A stretch of 64,000 nt of DNA from assembly GCA_963744145.1 (NCBI GenBank), contig CAVUSO010000001.1:5376001-5440000 (forward strand), given 5' to 3'. Made by a program: the position numbers and the translations under genes. The notes below the pieces were generated by a model that saw only the letters and a list, made by a program, of their open reading frames with translations, was not told the origin of the DNA and did not search any database. Below, piece by piece: positions 38,012 to 48,447 of the stretch; the stretch's first letter is position 1; every line of letters begins with the position of its first letter. This DNA is from an uncultured cyanobacterium. GTDB taxonomy: Bacteria > Cyanobacteriota > Cyanobacteriia > Cyanobacteriales > CAWUOF01.

Positions 38012-38988
38012 CTAAATACTCATTGCTAACATCCGTTGAATGGGTTGTAGTGCTGCTAAACGGGTTTCTTCGGGAAGCGTAATTTCTGGAGTACGGTTTT
38101 TCATGGCTAAATAAAGCTTTTCCAGAGTATTCAGACGCATATGAGGACACTCATTACAACTACACTGGTTCATGGGTGGTGCGGGAATGAAGTGTTTCTC
38201 TGGTGCTTGTTTTTGCATTTGATGAATAATTCCGGGTTCAGTAGCAACAATAAAACTCGAACTGGAACTGGAGCAAGCATATTTTAAGAGTGCAGTAGTA
38301 GAACCAATATAGTCTGCATGACGTAATACTGGTGGCTCACATTCTGGATGAGCAATCACTTCAGCATCGGGATGGACAATTTTCAGCTCGACAATTTTCT
38401 GTTCGGAAAATGTTTCATGGACGATACAACTACCTTGCCATAACACCATCTCTCTACCAGTCTGCTCCATTACATATCTCCCTAAATTACGATCTGGAGC
38501 AAAAATAATTGGTTGATCAGCGGGAATTTGATTAACAATTTTGACCACATTAGAACTGGTGCAAATAATGTCACTGAGAGCTTTAATATCGGCAGTACAG
38601 TTGATATAAGAAATGACTAAATGATTGGGATGGGCAGCTTTAAAAGCTGCAAAAGCATCTTTGGGACAACTATCAGCGAGGGAACAACCAGCTTTTAGAT
38701 CGGTAAAAGTACCAGTTTATTCGGGTTGAGAATTTTGGCAGTTTCTGCCATAAAGTGGACACCCGCAAAGACAATCACATCCGCATCGGTGTTGGCTGCT
38801 TTACGGGAAAGCTCTAGAGAATCACCAATGTAGTCAGCCACATCTTGAATATCAGGATCTTGGTAATAATGGGCTAAAACCACGGCATTCAGCTTTTTTT
38901 TCTCTTCTTCAATGAGAGTAAACAGATCCTGGTGGACTGGAATTGTAGTTTTGAGACTATCTTCGGAACGGATTAGAGTGGTAAACAC
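38012..38988 (-). CDS. nadA: Quinolinate synthase NadA, split by a one-base deletion near 38702
   Basis: [20 protein letters not shown], [P][32 protein letters not shown]; adding one base to CCG ATC restores the frame. Confidence 0.92.
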
Positions 38989-40393: not shown

Positions 40394-40587
40394 TTAAAAA
40401 GTAATATTCTCCCATTCTTGAGCTTCAATAAAACGGCTTAAATAGTTAACGTTGGTAGTAGCTATAATCAGAGATTGCCCCGGATATTCTTGTTGAAGGA
40501 GTGCCATTGTTTGCAAAGCAAAGCATCCCCAGAATTTTTAGGAGAGGAAGCTAAACCTAAAATTCCTGTATCTAAAAAAACAATCAT
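40394..40587 (-). pseudogene. PIN-domain toxin remnant with internal deletion and frameshifts
   Basis: MIVFLDTGILGLASSP.. joined out of frame to ..IIATTNVNYLSRFIEAQEWENITF*. Confidence 0.7.
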
Positions 40588-40826
40588 TCTTTACTAAAGA
40601 GTTTTTGTCCAGAGGGGCGATAACTATCAATAATTTTTTTGACTGCTTCCCAGTGTTGATCATTTTCTCTAGCTTCTTCTTCTGTGATCTCTTCCGCTAG
40701 TTTTCGTTTTAACCATTCCATTAAAGGTTGATTTTTTTCTAATTGTTCTTCTGGGGTTTTACCAAAGTGTTTGAGAGCGGGTGCAAATGAGTATTTCATA
40801 ACTTGATCCAATTGGTTTACTGACAT
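40584..40826 (-). CDS. Putative antitoxin partner of the PIN remnant
   Basis: ATGA overlap with the PIN start; ends KKIIDSYRPSGQKLFS. Confidence 0.65.
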   Translation of the reverse strand: MSVNQLDQVMKYSFAPALKHFGKTPEEQLEKNQPLMEWLKRKLAEEITEEEARENDQHWEAVKKIIDSYRPSGQKLFSKE

Positions 40827-40873
40827 GGTGAAGCATAGAACTGTTTTTAACCCTAGCAATAGCTTACAGCTAT

Positions 40874-41116
40874 TTATTGAGTGAAAGGCGATCGGGCATG
40901 ATCCATCTCGTCGATCGTTTTTGCTTCACGCCAAAATTTTAAACAACCTGCAACATCACTTAAGGTTGTTTCAGCAAAAGCTTTTTTTGGCTTGATTAAA
41001 ATTCCATCACCAGTATCAATCAAAAGTAATTCCTGACCCGCTTCCCAACCGTAAGCTTTCCCCAGAGATGGAGGAATAATCATTTGTCCTTGGTCTGATA
41101 CTCTGATTGTTTCCAT
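40874..41116 (-). CDS. AbrB/MazE/SpoVT-family antitoxin; 3' end possibly altered at a HIP1-like site
   Basis: VSDQGQMIIP...GWEAGQEL...GDGILIKP. Confidence 0.8.
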   Translation of the reverse strand: METIRVSDQGQMIIPPSLGKAYGWEAGQELLLIDTGDGILIKPKKAFAETTLSDVAGCLKFWREAKTIDEMDHARSPFTQ

Positions 41117-41276
41117 ATTAAAATAAACTGCGATAAATTATGGGAGACTCAAGTTTAGTTTAACTTGGCTGGTAGTGAAATTGCTAGACTATGCCACTTG
41201 ATAGTCGTTGGTATTGCACCCTAATTAATTGAGCTAGGCGATCGCATCAAAAAGAAAATAAACAATCAATCCGATT

Positions 41277-41340
41277 GTAGGGGCAGGTTCACCGATCAAT
41301 TCTATCACAAACGAGTAATCATCATAAACCTGCCCTCACC
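41277..41340. repeat. REP-like inverted repeat GTAGGGGCAGGTT...AACCTGCCCTCAC
   Basis: Imperfect inverted repeat of the GTAGGGG family. Confidence 0.55.
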
Positions 41341-41591
41341 CACCGATAAATCCCAAACTACAGATCATCTTAGCAAACGCGATCGCACAGTTCAAAATTC
41401 AGGCGATCGCATAATTATAATTAGATTCATTACTAGGAACTTGCTGTTTTAATACCCACCGCTTTTTTATATTTTTGGACAAAATTTTATCCCATTTCAA
41501 GGTTAAGATAGTTTAATTAATGGGACAACTGGTGGCATAATTAAATTAACTAAATTAAAATAACAGATAAAAACTTTCCCTGGTACAGATA

Positions 41592-42008
41592 ATGGACCCA
41601 ATAACTGCTGGTGCGATCGCACTAATTACTCTGCTGGTCAACAAAACTTTTGAGAAAACGGGCGAAATAGTTGTAAGTAAAGCTTTTGACCAAGCAGGTA
41701 ATGTTCTCAACTTGCTCAAACACAAATCTCCCGAAACTGCCAAAATGATTGCAGCAGCAGAAAATCCTGCTTTACCTCCTGGTGAAACGGTATATATGGA
41801 TGCTGTGGTAGAAAAGGTACAATCAGAAGCCCAACGTGACCCGGAAATTAAGGCAGAGTTGGAAAAATTAGGGGCTATGATCGAAGCAGCGAAAAAGGTA
41901 GATCCGCAATTGGCTAATACTATTAATGAAAATTGGCAGGGGATATGTTTTAAAAATGCTAATCCTACTATTTCTAATAATACTTTTAATTTTGGTGGCA
42001 AAGGATGA
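41592..42008 (+). CDS. Small helical protein (Bell/HeLo-like candidate effector) with a C-terminal motif shared with the adjacent NLR
   Basis: MDPIT hydrophobic N-terminal helix, helical core, C-terminal NWQGICFKNANPTISNNTFNF. Confidence 0.75.
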   Translation: MDPITAGAIALITLLVNKTFEKTGEIVVSKAFDQAGNVLNLLKHKSPETAKMIAAAENPALPPGETVYMDAVVEKVQSEAQRDPEIKAELEKLGAMIEAAKKVDPQLANTINENWQGICFKNANPTISNNTFNFGGKG

Positions 42009-43620
42009 ATATTGAAAAAAATTGGCAGGGAATAAATTTTGAAGATGCCAATCCTAGTATTACGGGTAATCAATTTATCTTTAATAATCAAACACCTTCA
42101 ATTCCTGTTTATAATATTCCTTATACTGGTGTTCTTAATTTTGTAGGACGAAAAACGGAACTGCAAACACTGCAAGGGCAATTCCAGAAGTGTGATGGTG
42201 TAGTCATTTCTGCTGTGGCGGGGATGGGTGGTGTGGGCAAAACTGAATTGGCGATTAAATATGCACGCACCCATGAACAAGATTATCCTGGAGGGATTTG
42301 CTGGTTATCTGCTAGAGATGAGGGTTTAGCTAATAATATTTTACAATTTGCGCTGCTTGATCTGAAGTTGGAAGTGCCGCAAAAATTAGGCGAAAAACTG
42401 CTATCTCTTAAAGAACAGGTAAGCTGGTGTTGGCAGCATTGGCAACCATCGGCGGGGGCAGTTTTATTGGTGTTAGATGATGTTACTATTTGGAAAAGTT
42501 GTCGAGATTTTATTCCCAAAATTAATCGCTTTAAGATTTTAATTACTACCCGATTACGACATCTCGATAGCAATTTTCTTCAGTTATCGTTAGATGTATT
42601 TTCACCGGATGAAGCTTTAGAATTTTTGAGGAATTTGCTTGGGGAAAAGCGAGTAGCACAGGAACTGGAAATTGCTAAAGATTTATGTAAATGGCTGGGG
42701 TATCTGCCTTTGGGGTTGGAATTGGTAGGACGATATTTGGTGGAAGATCCTGATTTGTCTTTAATGAAAATGTGGGAGAGGTTAAGACAAAAACGGTTGG
42801 AAGATGAGGCAGTTAATCCTGGAGATGAAGATTTACAGGATACAGAAATGACAGCAAAGAGAGGAGTAAAAACTGCGTTTGAGTTAAGCTGGCAAGAATT
42901 GGATGTGATGACACAGCAATTAGGGGAATTGTTGAGTTTGTTTGCGCCAGCTATTATTCCTTGGAAATTATTAGTTGAATCTATAGCTAAATTGCTGAAT
43001 TGGAATGAGGCAGAGGTTGATAAAGGAAAAAAGGAACTTTATAAGCGATTTTTAATTAAGAGGTTAGCAGAAAGAGAGGCTTGTTATGAAATTCACCCTT
43101 TGATTAGGGAGTTTTTGAAAGCAAAGATAGATGAGTCTGAACTAGCACAAGATGTCAAACAGGCTTTTGTAGAAGTGATGGTAACAATGGCCAAGGAAAT
43201 TCCTGATTCAATCACGATAGATTTAATTGAGAAGTTAAAAGTTGTAATTCCTCATCTAGAAGAAGTAGCGGAAAACTTGATTGATATAGTTAGGGATGAA
43301 GATTTATATTGCGTTTTTTTAATGGGTTAGGTAGATTTTATCAAGGTCAAGGATTATATAATTTAGCAGAACCCTGGTTAGAACAGTCTTTAAGCAAAAT
43401 AAAAGCAAAGTTGGGCAACGACCATCCCGATGTGGCTGCCAGTTTGAACAATCTGGCATTACTCTACAACAACCAAGGGAGATACGCAGAAGCGGAACCG
43501 TTATTCCTTGACGCTTTAGTAATATGCGAAAATTGTTTAGGAAAAGATCATCCTGGTACTATTGATATTCGTCAAAATCTAGATATACTTAAAGAATATC
43601 TCAGCCAGAGTAAATATTAG
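42005..43620 (+). CDS. NLR-like NB-ARC + TPR protein, frameshifted at a T7 run (43314-43320)
   Basis: GMGGVGKT, LLVLDDV, GYLPLGL, IHPL; continuation frame holds kinesin-light-chain-type TPRs (HPDVAASLNNLALLY..QGRYAEAEPL). Confidence 0.9.
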
Positions 43621-43729: not shown

Positions 43730-43878
43730 AAACCTTCGATATCTTGCTTATTGATTGCCAAAAATTCTGTAAAACCTTTATCCAGCATAGCCTCAACCGG
43801 AAAAATTAATCCCTCTCCTGTAATCAACTCAATCTCAAAAAATAATTCCCCTTTGCTGCCAAACCTCCCCTCAATTAT
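43730..43878 (-). pseudogene. Clan AA aspartic protease remnant
   Basis: IIEGRFGSKGELFFEIELI..VEAMLD, then a one-base loss in the DTG motif, then GFTEFLAINKQDIEG; first codon is ATA. Confidence 0.7.
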
Positions 43879-44192
43879 ATTCTACCAGTTGCCCCTGATT
43901 CATTCAAACAAAACATACAGTGGATAGTGTTTGGGTGTTTTTGCTGTGCCTTTTGGCTGGCTATTTCCTGATCAGAATCAATAAAATAATCCCCACTATT
44001 GGGTTCAACTGCAATATACCAGCCATAGTGTTTCTCAATTAGTTCAGGAGATACTTGCTCAAAAATTTTTCGACAACGCTGATGAAAAGCTTCTCTCTCG
44101 GCTTTATGTCTAGCTTTTTCTGCGGGTGACCATTGAATTTCTGGAAAAATTCTGCCTCGACGGACAATTCTCTGGGGAGTAGATTGGGTCAT
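43875..44192 (-). CDS. DUF5678-like protein (upstream partner of the protease remnant)
   Basis: ELIEKHYGWYIAVEPNSGDYFI; same gene order as 30054-30869. Confidence 0.65.
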   Translation of the reverse strand: MTQSTPQRIVRRGRIFPEIQWSPAEKARHKAEREAFHQRCRKIFEQVSPELIEKHYGWYIAVEPNSGDYFIDSDQEIASQKAQQKHPNTIHCMFCLNESGATGRI

Positions 44193-44499
44193 AATTCGCT
44201 CTAAATACTCATTTTTGTCTATTTGGGATTTCAGCCAAAAGATAGTCAGAAACTAATTCAAATTTGTTTGCTGATTACACTATAATTATAGCAGATTTTT
44301 GTGATAAAATTTATACCAGCTAAGGCTAATTCGGTAAAAATCTTCTTCATGGTAACTGTAAAGTTGCAAAGTTATTTATCCCAAAAATGCAACAACTATG
44401 CTATAATAAAATTAGTTGATTAAACAAAACGTCAAACTTATTATTCTGGACTAGCATTAATTACCCCTCAAAAAATCGATCAAGGAGGGTCGATTTGTC

Positions 44500-44820
44500 A
44501 TGATAGAAACAGAAAAAATTCTGCAAATTAGTCGGGCTATTGCTAGGGAATTTAAGCCAAACAAAATTATTTTATTTGGTTCATACGCTTATGGGAATCC
44601 TCAAGATGACTCAGATGTTGATTTATTAGTCATTTTGCCGTACAAGGGGAGTAATTTTCAGAAAAGTTGGGAAATTTTAAATAAAATTCAACCGAATTTT
44701 GCTCTAGATTTGTTAGTGCGAACTCCTGGAGATGTGGAGCAACGTCTCGCCTGGAATGATTTTTTTCTGCGGGAAATCATTGAAAAAGGAAAAGTGATTT
44801 ATGAATCCGCTAACAGTTGA
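44500..44820 (+). CDS. Minimal nucleotidyltransferase (MNT) antitoxin
   Basis: ILFGSYAYG..DSDVDLLV. Confidence 0.9.
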   Translation: MIETEKILQISRAIAREFKPNKIILFGSYAYGNPQDDSDVDLLVILPYKGSNFQKSWEILNKIQPNFALDLLVRTPGDVEQRLAWNDFFLREIIEKGKVIYESANS

Positions 44821-44983
44821 ATGGGTTGATAAAGCTGAGGGGGATTTTATTACAGCTTTGCGGGAGTTACGAGCCAGGAAATCTCCCAACTATGATGCGG
44901 CATCTTTTCACGCTCAACAGTGTGTTGAGAAATATTTGAAAGCGCATTTGCAAGAATCTGGAATTGCTTTCAGTAAAACATAG
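44801..44983 (+). pseudogene. Truncated HEPN toxin
   Basis: EWVDKAEGD..FHAQQCVEKYLKA..FSKT*; stops before the usual KTHDL motif and C-terminal half. Confidence 0.8.
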
Positions 44984-45046
44984 CTGTATGGCATTCATAA
45001 ACCTGGAATAGGCTGTAAACTGTCAAGAAGTAATAGGAAAAATATA

Positions 45047-45331
45047 ATGCAAGCATATAAACTCAAAGGAAAAATAGATCCATCTGGTAATTTAGTGATT
45101 ACCGAAACCGTAAATTTACCCCCTGGAGATGTGGAAGTGATAGTCTGGCAAACTACTGAGATGTTTGATAACACTACAACTTCAGCAAGTGAACTACGAT
45201 CAGAAACACCAAAGAGAAAATCTAGGGTAAAAGCATTTGAGGGTTTATTTGAAAATGCTCCACCCATCCCACCAAACTTTGATCCAGACCTAGCTAAATG
45301 GGAATATTTAAAAGAGAAACATAAGCTGTGA
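45047..45331 (+). CDS. Putative antitoxin upstream of the PIN gene
   Basis: GTGA overlap with the PIN gene; ends WEYLKEKHKL. Confidence 0.65.
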   Translation: MQAYKLKGKIDPSGNLVITETVNLPPGDVEVIVWQTTEMFDNTTTSASELRSETPKRKSRVKAFEGLFENAPPIPPNFDPDLAKWEYLKEKHKL

Positions 45332-45747
45332 AAATCTTGCTAGATACTAATATAGTTGTTGATGATGCCCTGGAAAGACAGCCTTTTTGGGATGCAAGCG
45401 AGCAAGTTTTATCCCTGATTGAACAAAGACAAATTGAAAGTTATATTTCAGCTTCAACTTTTAGTGATTTGTATTACATCATCCGTAGAGCAAGAGGTAA
45501 AGATTGGACGTTTACTTATTTAAACCAGTTAGTTACCTTTTGCCGAATTGCTACTGTAAATCAGGCAGTAATTACAATGGCTATCACCGCAAATTTTAGT
45601 GATTTTGAAGATGCCATTCAATACGCCACTGCTGTATTAAATCAATTAGATGTGATTATTACCCGTAATCCTAAAGACTTCTCTGTTGTTCAACCGCGAA
45701 TTCTTACTCCTCAGCAATTAATTGAGGAATTAAAAAATTCTTGTTGA
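45328..45747 (+). CDS. PIN-domain (VapC-like) protein
   Basis: ILLDTNIVVD, DFEDAIQ, IITRNPKDF. Confidence 0.9.
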   Translation: MKILLDTNIVVDDALERQPFWDASEQVLSLIEQRQIESYISASTFSDLYYIIRRARGKDWTFTYLNQLVTFCRIATVNQAVITMAITANFSDFEDAIQYATAVLNQLDVIITRNPKDFSVVQPRILTPQQLIEELKNSC

Positions 45748-45837
45748 GTGATTTCAACAATGAAAAAATCGAATAATTTTCAAACTTTCAATCCCGCGAT
45801 CGCAACACCCAAGAAAATATATTTATTACTGTTATAT

Positions 45838-46170
45838 CTTGAGGCTTTAGTAATATGCGAAAGGGCGTTGCTGATTTACGGTATGAATAAAGAATTTGTA
45901 GGGGTGTATGGCTTTTGAGCCCAGGGCGCATAGCCATGCGCCCCTACAGAATTTTCATACCCTGATTAAGCAACGCCAGATCATCCTAATACTATTGTTA
46001 TTCGTGAAAATCTAAATATACTTAAAGAATCTCTCAGCCAGAGTAAAGATTAGCGATCGCCTGATCTATCTGAAAATGTTTAAAATCATCTTAATAACTC
46101 TCTTTCGCGATCGCATATTCCCTACTCGCTAGGGAAACTGTCAAATAAGGATTTACAGGCTGAAACCTAC
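45838..46170 (+). pseudogene. Diverged duplicate of the NLR 3' end and its downstream flank (about 43507-43735)
   Basis: Colinear high similarity, interrupted by the MITE-like element. Confidence 0.8.
45864..45977. mobile_element. MITE-like element containing a GTAGGGG...CCCCTAC REP-like hairpin
   Basis: Terminal inverted repeats GGCGTTGCTGATTTACGGTATGAA / TTCATACCCTGATTAAGCAACGCC; absent from the paralogous site near 43531. Confidence 0.75.
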
Positions 46171-46353
46171 TTATAATTCGCTCTAAATACTCATTTTTAT
46201 CTATGATTTTAGCTCGGAATTGACAAGCGATCGCGGTGCTGATGACACTAAATGCTACTCTAAATATAGACAGGATATTTAATATTAATAATTCTGGCGT
46301 GATGTTTAAATTACATTTTCGCTCATTAGGTTGATTGGGCAAGGGTGAAAATA

Positions 46354-46701
46354 TTACAAAGGTAAGTATTGAACTTGGTTGATTAAATCTTCAGGGTCAC
46401 TTACTTTCGCAAGTATTTCTAAGTCGCGCACACAATCGCCAACGGTTACATACTGTTGATGCGCGTAGATAACCCCACTAAAATTTATTCCCTCTTGCTG
46501 GTGATGATTTGCCATGACTAAAAAATCATCATCTTGGGTAAAAATAACCCGCTGAAGTTCCGTAGCACGATCAAGTAAAATCGGATCAGGTGTGCCAGTT
46601 CTGCCATCTTCTTGTACGGTGAGAACGTCTATCCCTCGCAATTTTAAACCATTTGTAATAGCTCGGCGGACATGTTCATCGATGTACAGAGCTAGGGTCA
46701 T
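46354..46701 (-). CDS. DUF5615 PIN-like protein
   Basis: LYIDEHV, DPILLDRATELQRVIFTQDDDF. Confidence 0.85.
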   Translation of the reverse strand: MTLALYIDEHVRRAITNGLKLRGIDVLTVQEDGRTGTPDPILLDRATELQRVIFTQDDDFLVMANHHQQEGINFSGVIYAHQQYVTVGDCVRDLEILAKVSDPEDLINQVQYLPL

Positions 46702-47015
46702 TTAATTAGCCCTTGGATGCGAAGTTTTTTAACTAAAGCAGATTCACCAGTTTGTTGACGTAACTTTTCAACCTGCTCGAATCGTTGCTGCATATCGGCA
46801 TCTAGTTCTTCTTTGTTATCCCAATAATAAGCTAAGGCAGAATAAATTTGACTCATGCTTAAATAGGGGTGTTGAAATTTAATTTCTTCGGGACTCCAGC
46901 CAAAACTAAGATGACCGGAAACTAATTCAATTACTTTCATCGTTGTTCCGGCGATGTAGGGAACTTTGTTTTCATCCAGTTCTATATATTTGTGTTGAGT
47001 AGCAGTCAAGTTCAT
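46698..47015 (-). CDS. DUF433 antitoxin-like protein
   Basis: PYIAGTTMKV..GWSPEEI..HPYLSMSQIYSALAYY; start placed at ATG 47015. Confidence 0.88.
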   Translation of the reverse strand: MNLTATQHKYIELDENKVPYIAGTTMKVIELVSGHLSFGWSPEEIKFQHPYLSMSQIYSALAYYWDNKEELDADMQQRFEQVEKLRQQTGESALVKKLRIQGLIK

Positions 47016-47115
47016 CAAATTTGCCTTGTTGCTGATTACACTATAATTATAGCAGATTTTTGTGATTCGGCTGATAAAGATACGGTGAGCGATTGAATCC
47101 GGTTGATTAATTCTG

Positions 47116-47490
47116 TTAACCTTGCCCGTTGCCTTGGTTTCTCTGTTGAAGTTGTAAATATTCCCAGATGCGTCTAATCTCGGCTCGATCTTCTGCACTA
47201 CGTTCTGCTAATTCCGTATTGCGTTGTGCTAGTTCGCGATCGTGTTGTGCTAATTCGATATTGCGTTGTGCCAATTCCAACATAAATCCGGACAAGTTGG
47301 TAACAGTAGCCGTCAATTGCCGTTGGCTCTCGAAGAGAGAATCTACCTTATCAGTAATAACCGAAAATTCTCCCTGAAGTGCGAGGATTTCATCAAGCAA
47401 GATATTCGTTCTTTTCCCAAATTCGGTCTCGTCCTGACTAACTCGTTCTCTTAACGCTGTTATTTGTTCTTGTAGTGAATTGGTTTCCAT
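47116..47490 (-). CDS. Coiled-coil hypothetical protein with 7-aa repeats
   Basis: ELAQRNI/ELAQHDR/ELAQRNT repeats, EIRRIWEYL. Confidence 0.7.
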   Translation of the reverse strand: METNSLQEQITALRERVSQDETEFGKRTNILLDEILALQGEFSVITDKVDSLFESQRQLTATVTNLSGFMLELAQRNIELAQHDRELAQRNTELAERSAEDRAEIRRIWEYLQLQQRNQGNGQG

Positions 47491-47642
47491 CTTGCTTTAG
47501 TTGATTTGGCTCAATCTTATTATAGCTGTCTGTTATATCAGTGGGTTGTCCTAGTTTTCCGGCGATCGCTGCTACCCAGATCGGAAATGTAGCTATTGTC
47601 CTAGGTCCACGCTGCGCGATTACCTACGGTATACTAAGTGAA

Positions 47643-47670
47643 GTAGGGGCGTATTGCAATACGCCCCTAC
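47643..47670. repeat. REP-like palindrome GTAGGGGCGTATTGCAATACGCCCCTAC
   Basis: Identical to 1241-1268. Confidence 0.9.
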
Positions 47671-47685
47671 GGTTTCTGATATCTA

Positions 47686-48246
47686 TTAGTCCTCAAAAAT
47701 CGCATCAACACTAATCACTATGTCCGGAAATGAAAGAGGTGAGATACTTTCACCGCGTCTAAATTGTTGGATACTTTCATAACCATTAGCTCCGGGATTA
47801 CGATAAACCTCAACTAATTCAGCCCGTACATCTACGATCCAAAGTTCAATAATCCCAGCTCTCCCATAGAGAACTGACTTCACATTGCGATCGTTGTCGA
47901 TGGTCGTATCTGCTACTTCGATCAATAAATATACGTCTTGGGGTTGGGGGTGTAACTTTCGGTATGAACGACGTTTCAAGATTGATACATCAGGTTGGGG
48001 TTCTAATCCCCCGTTTAGCCTGACTGGAGTTTGTGACAAGATTGAAATACGTTTACCCAAAGCGTCATAGAATAGTTCATACAAGCAACCAATACAGCCT
48101 GCATGACGACTACCCATCGGTGCCATAAGAATTATATCCCCATCAATTAGTTCAGTCCGTTCATCAGGTCCAATTATCCCAACTTCCCCCAGCTTGTAAT
48201 ATTCCTCCACAGTAAATTTCTTTCGCTCTGTTGCTACTACAGACAT
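47686..48246 (-). CDS. Uma2-family endonuclease
   Basis: FTVEEYYKL, ELIDG, EPQPD, LLIEVADTT; start placed at ATG 48246. Confidence 0.9.
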   Translation of the reverse strand: MSVVATERKKFTVEEYYKLGEVGIIGPDERTELIDGDIILMAPMGSRHAGCIGCLYELFYDALGKRISILSQTPVRLNGGLEPQPDVSILKRRSYRKLHPQPQDVYLLIEVADTTIDNDRNVKSVLYGRAGIIELWIVDVRAELVEVYRNPGANGYESIQQFRRGESISPLSFPDIVISVDAIFED

Positions 48247-48447
48247 AATCCTTATCCTATTGCTTGAATGGGGTCTATCTAACAATTAGATTTTACTCTG
48301 ATGGCTTTCTTCGTAGGCTGATTGTCCCGTAGGCGATCCAGTTCCCAGTCGCATATTTGGGATTGACTCAACTCTTCTCTGTAATGTTCAGATGTTGGTT
48401 AAAACTCACAGGAACCACAGCATCGATCGCATCTTTCGACTTGAGAA

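Follow-up and report, generated by a model that had tools for sequence, protein, structure and literature searches.

The DNA analysed here, a 64,000-nucleotide stretch from an uncultured cyanobacterium (the window), contains two overlapping genes whose products share a short motif, placed at the end of the first protein and near the start of the second. This arrangement raises the question of whether the pair is an amyloid-signalling immune module, and of how effector and receptor come to bear the same motif in this locus and in its relatives. Reading the evidence jointly, we consider it likely that the window holds a two-gene BASS7 immune module and that its relatives also occur in a one-frame form, in which a Bell domain, a BASS motif, a UGA codon, a hairpin and a sensor follow one another. 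Taken alone, the window locus is one more BASS7 pair and is ordinary; what is new, at the level of the family, is the proposed readthrough form.

A two-gene locus with a shared motif

The locus comprises the following features, all on the plus strand:

41592..42008, candidate Bell-family effector, 138 aa (open reading frame), with a helical domain over approximately residues 3-115 followed by a C-terminal BASS7 motif
41598..41639, N-terminal hydrophobic helix, residues 3-16, predicted to insert into the membrane (a helix in both structural models)
41921..42082, 73-nt direct repeat, two copies 74% identical and 89 nt apart, spanning both motifs
41928..41996, effector-side BASS7 motif, residues 113-135 (21/23 identical to C12_s007 by hand count)
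42005..42008, ATGA stop/start overlap between effector and receptor (sequence)
42020..42082, receptor-side BASS7 motif, residues 6-26 (13/21 identical to the effector motif and 15/21 to C12_s012 by hand count)
42152..42805, NB-ARC domain of the receptor, residues 50-267 (PF00931, E 7.4e-15)
42221-42244, Walker A motif of the receptor, residue 73, intact
43309..43620, short TPR sensor region of two to three 42-aa repeats (TPR_12, E 4.1e-28; TPR_10, E 8.2e-25)
43312..43316, frame break between the NB-ARC region and the TPRs (two fewer bases there in contigs of runs X1 and X2)

The sequence and its open reading frames bear out the 138-aa frame, the ATGA overlap and the coordinates of both motifs in the initial annotation, and recomputing the comparison of effector residues 114-134 with receptor residues 6-26 returned the same 13 of 21 identities without gaps (47/63 in the DNA). 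The annotation had also held that the NLR has no other N-terminal effector domain, and Pfam agrees: the NB-ARC domain starts at residue 50, and ahead of it lie the motif and a linker, with no domain. The overlap of the two frames suggests that their translation is coupled. In tblastn searches of the 7.7-Mb genome each motif is the other's top match after itself (E approximately 3e-5), while the next-best matches of the two stand at E 0.045 and 0.10. Promoter-like sites are at chance level (8 versus 8.6), and a search for a terminator found none. The hydrophobicity of the effector peaks in the 15 residues from residue 3 (mean 1.84), and comparison with Bab and HET-S suggests a membrane role for this first helix.

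The motif belongs to BASS7

The possibility of a new amyloid class had been raised for this motif, and neither the motif nor the effector has a Pfam family above cut-off, as a new class might be expected to show. However, the published class C12, which the supplement of PMC8086366 equates with BASS7 in the part consulted, contains an entry (C12_s007) identical to the effector motif at 21 of 23 positions, and the receptor motif matches C12_s012 at 15 of 21 positions, both counted by hand against the published entries. By this sequence comparison the motif is BASS7 and already catalogued, which makes the window locus an ordinary two-gene Bell/NLR pair; a new class was rejected, with a probability that we put at next to nil. 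The effector motif of the window has a Cys after Gly-Ile; of 51 motif copies, 47 carry Asn there. The same Cys is present in the X1 contig.

Passages of the preprint of Dyrka et al. (bioRxiv 10.1101/2020.01.06.895854) describe BASS7-10 as specific to cyanobacteria, give overlapping ORFs for 42% of cases in a gene-distance analysis, and name BASS1 and BASS3, with BASS7 not among them, as tested experimentally. They also describe a two-gene and an all-in-one form; the window locus is of the two-gene form. As far as these published cyanobacterial BASS7 Bell/NLR pairs are described there, the window locus resembles them in its motif, its adjacent and collinear NB-ARC-TPR gene, the short overlap and the host, and its Bell protein falls within their 120-140 aa, with an acidic residue 2 and a hydrophobic first helix. 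It departs from them in the Asn-to-Cys change of the effector motif, the short TPR array and the frame break in the assembly.

The frame break in the receptor

The second gene had been described as a coupled NB-ARC-TPR protein; both domains are present, but they do not form one ORF in this assembly. The NB-ARC frame, 441 aa long, ends at a stop at 43330, and a different frame, at 43309-43620, encodes the TPRs; by arithmetic, the receptor without the break would have approximately 537 aa. A contig of run X1 (1874 nt, depth 6.7) covers 41494-43369 and differs from the window there by two substitutions and two fewer bases, all of them within 43312-43316. X1 is possibly the sample behind this assembly and so need not represent a second strain. 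In run X2, a more distant contig likewise has two fewer bases at the break and keeps the frame. Since the break is missing from an otherwise identical X1 contig, we regard an assembly error as quite probable. The housekeeping gene nadA (quinolinate synthase; 38012-38988, minus strand), 3 kb away, is also split into two ORFs with a frame change near 38700, which suggests indel errors in this assembly. Provided that the break is an error, the sequence indicates that the receptor combines NB-ARC and a repeat sensor in one polypeptide.

If the frameshift were real, the window copy would be a decaying BASS7 locus, with a receptor deprived of its TPR sensor and a weakened effector motif. The Cys at the usual Asn position, the effector, which is approximately 17 residues shorter than its closest homologues, and the short TPR array make decay possible, and the stop at 43330 and a neighbouring HEPN ORF of only 60 aa would also fit. 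Against it stand the X1 contig, identical across 1.87 kb save four changes clustered at the break, the in-frame X2 contig, the equally split nadA and the intact Walker A of the receptor, and we judge decay to be unlikely.

Two further observations concern these contigs. At 43410-43592, X2 and X3 contigs show joints that go back 110-124 nt within the TPR region, consistent with extra TPR repeats in related strains or paralogues. In the upstream intergenic region, at 41238-41340, several contigs and a high summed depth in X1 and X2 resemble a multi-copy repeat.

Effector family and fold

Searches with the effector returned 67 homologous proteins at E≤0.001, itself included; of 401 genomes of the order, 113 contain matches to the family profile, while a search of genome contigs with the single protein gave one locus. 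The profile retrieves proteins whose tails are equal or close to entries of the published Bell set, and the tail of one of them (L040) is exactly C07_s027 over 35 residues. By its sequence family, the effector thus appears to carry a Bell domain.

Two AlphaFold models of the effector (pLDDT 66 and 73) are all-helical with a low-confidence tail. The best fold matches, at Z 5.1 and 3.9, are to unrelated helical proteins, four fold searches gave no Foldseek match at E≤0.001, and sequence searches of solved structures returned helical look-alikes only; these null searches exclude no fold for the effector, and they gave no confirmation of a membrane-targeting helical bundle of the Babybell/HeLo/4HB kind around its hydrophobic first helix. 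No PADLOC family matches the effector above cut-off, as with Pfam, and no system-specific PADLOC model matches the window, where a generic TPR model alone matches, on the TPR piece. The comparison of 130 homologues with PADLOC gave scattered weak matches, with at most two members per family. The ESM Atlas returned unnamed cyanobacterial clusters, the first of which has HetE-N on 20% of its members; its recognition value is below the mark of the tool, which makes it no more than a lead. Two proteins of 349 aa, P0217 and P0218, contain a CHAT domain (PF12770), which in P0217 precedes a Bell domain with a BASS7 end; these two could each be two genes called as one.

Motif pairing is conserved in two-gene relatives

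We examined 91 loci, made up of 30 returned loci, 60 taken from the better-scoring profile matches and L001, with lower-scoring ones left out; one fused ORF was set aside, which leaves 90 unfused loci. Since the loci are related, counts over this set overstate independence. A matching tail and head were found in 21 of the 22 two-gene loci, the window included, with scores of 34-92; the exception, L080, has an aberrant effector tail. The cognate tail/head score averages 64.8, versus 30.7 with the partners permuted and a maximum of 46.5 among 10,000 permutations; this result is not a probability, because several loci are near-copies. Across the two-gene loci the motif type shifts in step on the effector and receptor sides, and ten of the 90 loci, again with the window, are two-gene BASS7 loci. 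Matched motifs thus recur at effector C-termini and at adjacent NLR N-termini, where the initial annotation had proposed to look, and the matched pairs, together with the overlap with the published Bell set, support its reading of a Bell effector and an NLR joined by amyloid signalling.

When the two motif regions were modelled as a complex, the prediction scored 0.41 versus 0.03 for the best control, with contact agreement of at least 94% and partner pLDDT of at least 64; this lends weak support, and in the calibration the passes at or below 0.60 came from 5 of 78 solved complexes and from all four passing mismatches of 180. The shared motif could instead serve a non-amyloid pairing or be a by-product of local duplication, as the position of its two copies in a DNA direct repeat 89 nt apart and the weak complex prediction might suggest. 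Such a reading has to contend with matching tail/head pairs of several motif types across families, and with the related BASS motifs that, according to passages of the preprint 10.1101/2024.11.07.622273, form amyloid and signal in E. coli Bab/Agp; we consider it highly improbable.

Most relatives continue in frame past a UGA codon

The effector stop among the 90 unfused loci is TGA in 63 and TAA or TAG in 27. The frame continues for at least 100 codons past this stop in 52 of the 63 TGA loci versus none of the 27 others; as background, 25 of 738 TGA-ending ORFs of at least 200 aa continue in frame in the window's genome. No second motif copy lies in the first 60 residues past the stop in any of the 52 in-frame loci (motif score there at most 20, median 14), versus 21 of 22 two-gene loci with one. 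The downstream in-frame partners are NB-ARC-TPR, NB-ARC with an APAF1 helical domain, NACHT-HEAT, nSTAND1, CHASE2, PsbP-like and PPC, with no Pfam match in 6 of the 52. Most of the in-frame NB-ARC loci have their first ATG inside the Walker A motif. The annotation of three named plasmids starts the downstream protein at an in-frame TTG or GTG, 30-103 codons past the stop. Examples of the in-frame form are L017, L020, L031 and, at L147:2803-2847, the Nostoc sp. UHCC 0870 plasmid NZ_CP091916.1, whose effector is WP_237997355.1. Non-NLR, nSTAND1 or Pfam-less partners are found at L043, L033, L066, L094, L100, L016, L047, L071 and L072, where the frames without a Pfam match have 124-126 aa.

Since the in-frame sensors lack a second motif, reading through the stop is the simplest way for them to bear one. 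We consider it likely, from these sequence patterns, that programmed UGA readthrough makes a free effector and a motif-bearing receptor from one gene, and this would explain the many BASS-tailed Bell proteins that have no matching receptor head. The initial annotation had counted fusion of the two ORFs in relatives against a functional pairing. This is half of what is seen: most relatives have one frame, split only by the TGA and hairpin, and a single frame interrupted in this way by a conserved element strengthens the functional link and does not refute it.

In the window locus itself the frame closes 8 codons past the effector stop and the second motif has its own ATG; neither a matrix scan nor a covariance model found the UGA-hairpin element in the window's genome. 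BASS7 tails are divided among 10 two-gene, 6 readthrough and 4 unassigned loci. Of 63 NB-ARC domains, 37 were long enough and had a GMGG-type Walker A; on a quick tree of these 37 the architecture labels change 10 times, at least 7 of which are forced by well-supported branches, and this is no fewer than for shuffled labels. Three other receptors, two of them readthrough and one two-gene, share a 99% clade with that of the window. Two-gene receptors such as that of L023 keep the same linker peptide behind the motif, and tandem duplication of the motif with gain of a new start could, on these sequences, convert one form to the other, in whichever direction. The NB-ARC domains of L080 and L070 are nearly identical and the two loci differ in architecture: one domain lies behind a readthrough element; the other starts on its own, with a match to a published BASS8 entry, and is paired with an effector whose tail is aberrant.

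A conserved UGA-CUR and hairpin element at the junction

The codon after the TGA is CTA or CTG in 41 of the 52 in-frame loci, and the third codon ends in CG in 48. A 5-bp stem starts at +12; in the ungapped alignment 70% of its cells are paired, with 28 two-sided changes, and 0 of 500 shuffles reach either the pairing or the change value, while slid controls give 20-37%, the hairpin having been derived from the same sequences that are used to score it. A perfect stem is present in 38 of the 52 loci (shuffle mean 5.2, maximum 15) and missing in 14, and 5 of the 36 other loci have one. The loops of the perfect stems measure 8 nt (30 loci), 5 nt (7) or 14 nt (1), in steps that are multiples of 3. 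RNAalifold reported no consensus structure for the ungapped alignment of the element, and Rfam gave no match in 12 readthrough loci. A weaker outer helix over the stop is also 70% paired, with only 2 two-sided changes and so no covariation support. Inspection by eye ruled against a mini-hairpin spanning the stop, as base changes break it.

When run on 150 genomes of the order, a context-blind covariance model of the element had matches in 28; on 150 of the phylum, it had matches in 11. A first search with it returned 30 loci, and all 21 outside the training set stay in frame for at least 127 codons; 15 of these 21 lie behind an ORF that matches the Bell profile. In a second search, 10 of 11 further loci, including one training locus, continue for at least 513 codons and one closes after 32. 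As the model includes linker codons, homologues are to be expected among its matches, and what counts in these searches is that stop and frame are preserved.

Readthrough and other ways of making the sensor

According to passages of the review PMC13517186, UGA-CUA and a structure at +12 behind an 8-nt spacer are both found in viral readthrough. The UGA-CUA or UGA-CUG, 8-nt spacer and +12 structure of the relatives are in this respect like the alphavirus UGA-CUA/CGG with its 3′ stem-loop and the MoMLV pseudoknot at +12. Unlike the viral elements, they sit in bacterial chromosomal and plasmid immune genes, have a short 5-bp hairpin, and would serve to place an identical amyloid tag on receptor and effector. 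The same passages count UGA readthrough in the phage Q-beta coat gene among the known cases and present the bacterial examples, Q-beta coat and cat-86, as leaky UGA codons. Two database proteins, P0216 and P0219, have Trp at the stop position; P0216 is identical to the readthrough locus L031 at 194 of 200 positions and P0219 comes from a Nostoc assembly, both being known from protein records alone, and the Trp of P0216 possibly stems from a code-4 gene call.

The sensor might also be made separately, by re-initiation right after the stop or at an internal start, in which case no fusion protein would arise and the hairpin would act as a signal for processing, regulation or recombination. In 25 of the 52 loci the stop is followed by a CTG or GTG codon, RefSeq places internal TTG or GTG starts in the three plasmid examples, and the frequent changes of architecture on the tree are what a recombination site would permit. 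However, the codon is CTA, CCA, CTC, CTT or ATA in the other 27, the first ATG falls within Walker A in most NB-ARC loci, and separate initiation leaves the strict frame keeping and the 3-nt loop steps unexplained, besides yielding a sensor without a motif to signal with. We hold this to be distinctly unlikely, and prefer readthrough.

A fusion could further arise by another kind of recoding, through A-to-I editing of UGA to UGG, ribosomal bypassing or selenocysteine insertion. The bacterial SECIS is a hairpin 3′ of a UGA, which the element recalls, and the weaker outer helix described above could bury the stop. The Rfam comparison argues against this, and SelA was found in 0 of 41 genomes, with positive controls in E. 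coli and M. jannaschii, on which ground selenocysteine was rejected; a tRNA-Sec model matched tRNAs in all 41 genomes and in 14 of 14 controls alike, three of them just over the cut-off. In addition, according to passages of PMC11126739, the residue that E. coli chiefly inserts at an unedited UGA is Trp. Recoding other than readthrough therefore seems very unlikely.

The text of the preprint 10.1101/2020.01.06.895854 makes no mention of readthrough, a stop codon or in-frame continuation in the part consulted, and its journal version or supplements may differ; nor was readthrough in Bell/BASS systems found in literature searches or in the available passages of PMC8195603, PMC13506858, PMC12261475 and the Bab/Agp preprint.

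Proposed mechanism and relation to known amyloid systems

By analogy with HET-S/NWD2 and Bab/Agp, binding of a ligand by the TPRs would lead to oligomerization of the receptor through its NB-ARC domain. The motifs of the oligomerized receptors would then stack into a cross-beta seed, which would convert the tail of the effector and release its hydrophobic first helix; the released helix may damage the membrane and so kill the infected cell. In the readthrough relatives, most ribosomes would stop at the UGA and give free effector, while a minority would insert a residue, probably Trp, and continue to a receptor with the identical motif.

In HET-S/NWD2 a motif at the receptor N-terminus templates an adjacent membrane-targeting effector, as described in passages of 10.1101/2020.01.06.895854 and 10.1101/2024.11.07.622273. 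That system differs in its HRAM motif, with two pseudo-repeats on the effector, its NACHT-WD40 receptor and its HeLo domain, whereas each protein of the window has one motif copy. Bab/Agp of E. coli (BASS11), as presented in parts of 10.1101/2024.11.07.622273, is alike in having an adjacent effector and sensor with a common motif and a Bell-related helical effector, and abortive infection is shown for it there. In contrast to the window, it has a TPR-GreA/B-PIN sensor in place of NB-ARC-TPR, another motif family and the shorter Babybell domain; between the window effector and Bab/Agp we found no profile or fold match.

Taken together, the data suggest that Bell/BASS modules probably toggle between a duplicated motif on a separate receptor, as in the window, and UGA readthrough with a virus-like UGA-CUR and hairpin. 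Structure-assisted programmed readthrough is familiar in viruses; here a conserved, covarying element lies at the effector-sensor junction of most loci examined. Readthrough would constitute a third architecture beside the two-gene and all-in-one forms. If this holds, the readthrough form would be a portable Bell-BASS-UGA-hairpin cassette for NLR and non-NTPase sensors alike, extending amyloid signalling to sensors other than NLRs; it would guarantee a perfect motif match and set a low ratio of receptor to effector, and stress might tune immunity through termination efficiency. It would also mean that structure-stimulated readthrough is widespread in bacterial cellular genes and missed by annotation pipelines, with readthrough receptors annotated with truncated N-termini.

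Genomic neighbourhood

Four more STAND-type frames occur in the genome (G000:C1, 4200755-4203289, 4272651-4276784, 4424541-4426355 and 5160756-5163110); none has a BASS7 head, and their N-terminal regions are longer. The GC content of the locus region is not unusual. The locus had been placed within a TA-rich island, and Pfam confirms MazE/AbrB, nucleotidyltransferase with HEPN, and PIN among the small toxin-antitoxin-like genes that cluster around it at 40584-41116 and 43875-48285. At 44500-44983 on the plus strand, the nucleotidyltransferase is followed by the 60-aa HEPN ORF, which covers half of the Pfam model and is truncated or frameshifted.
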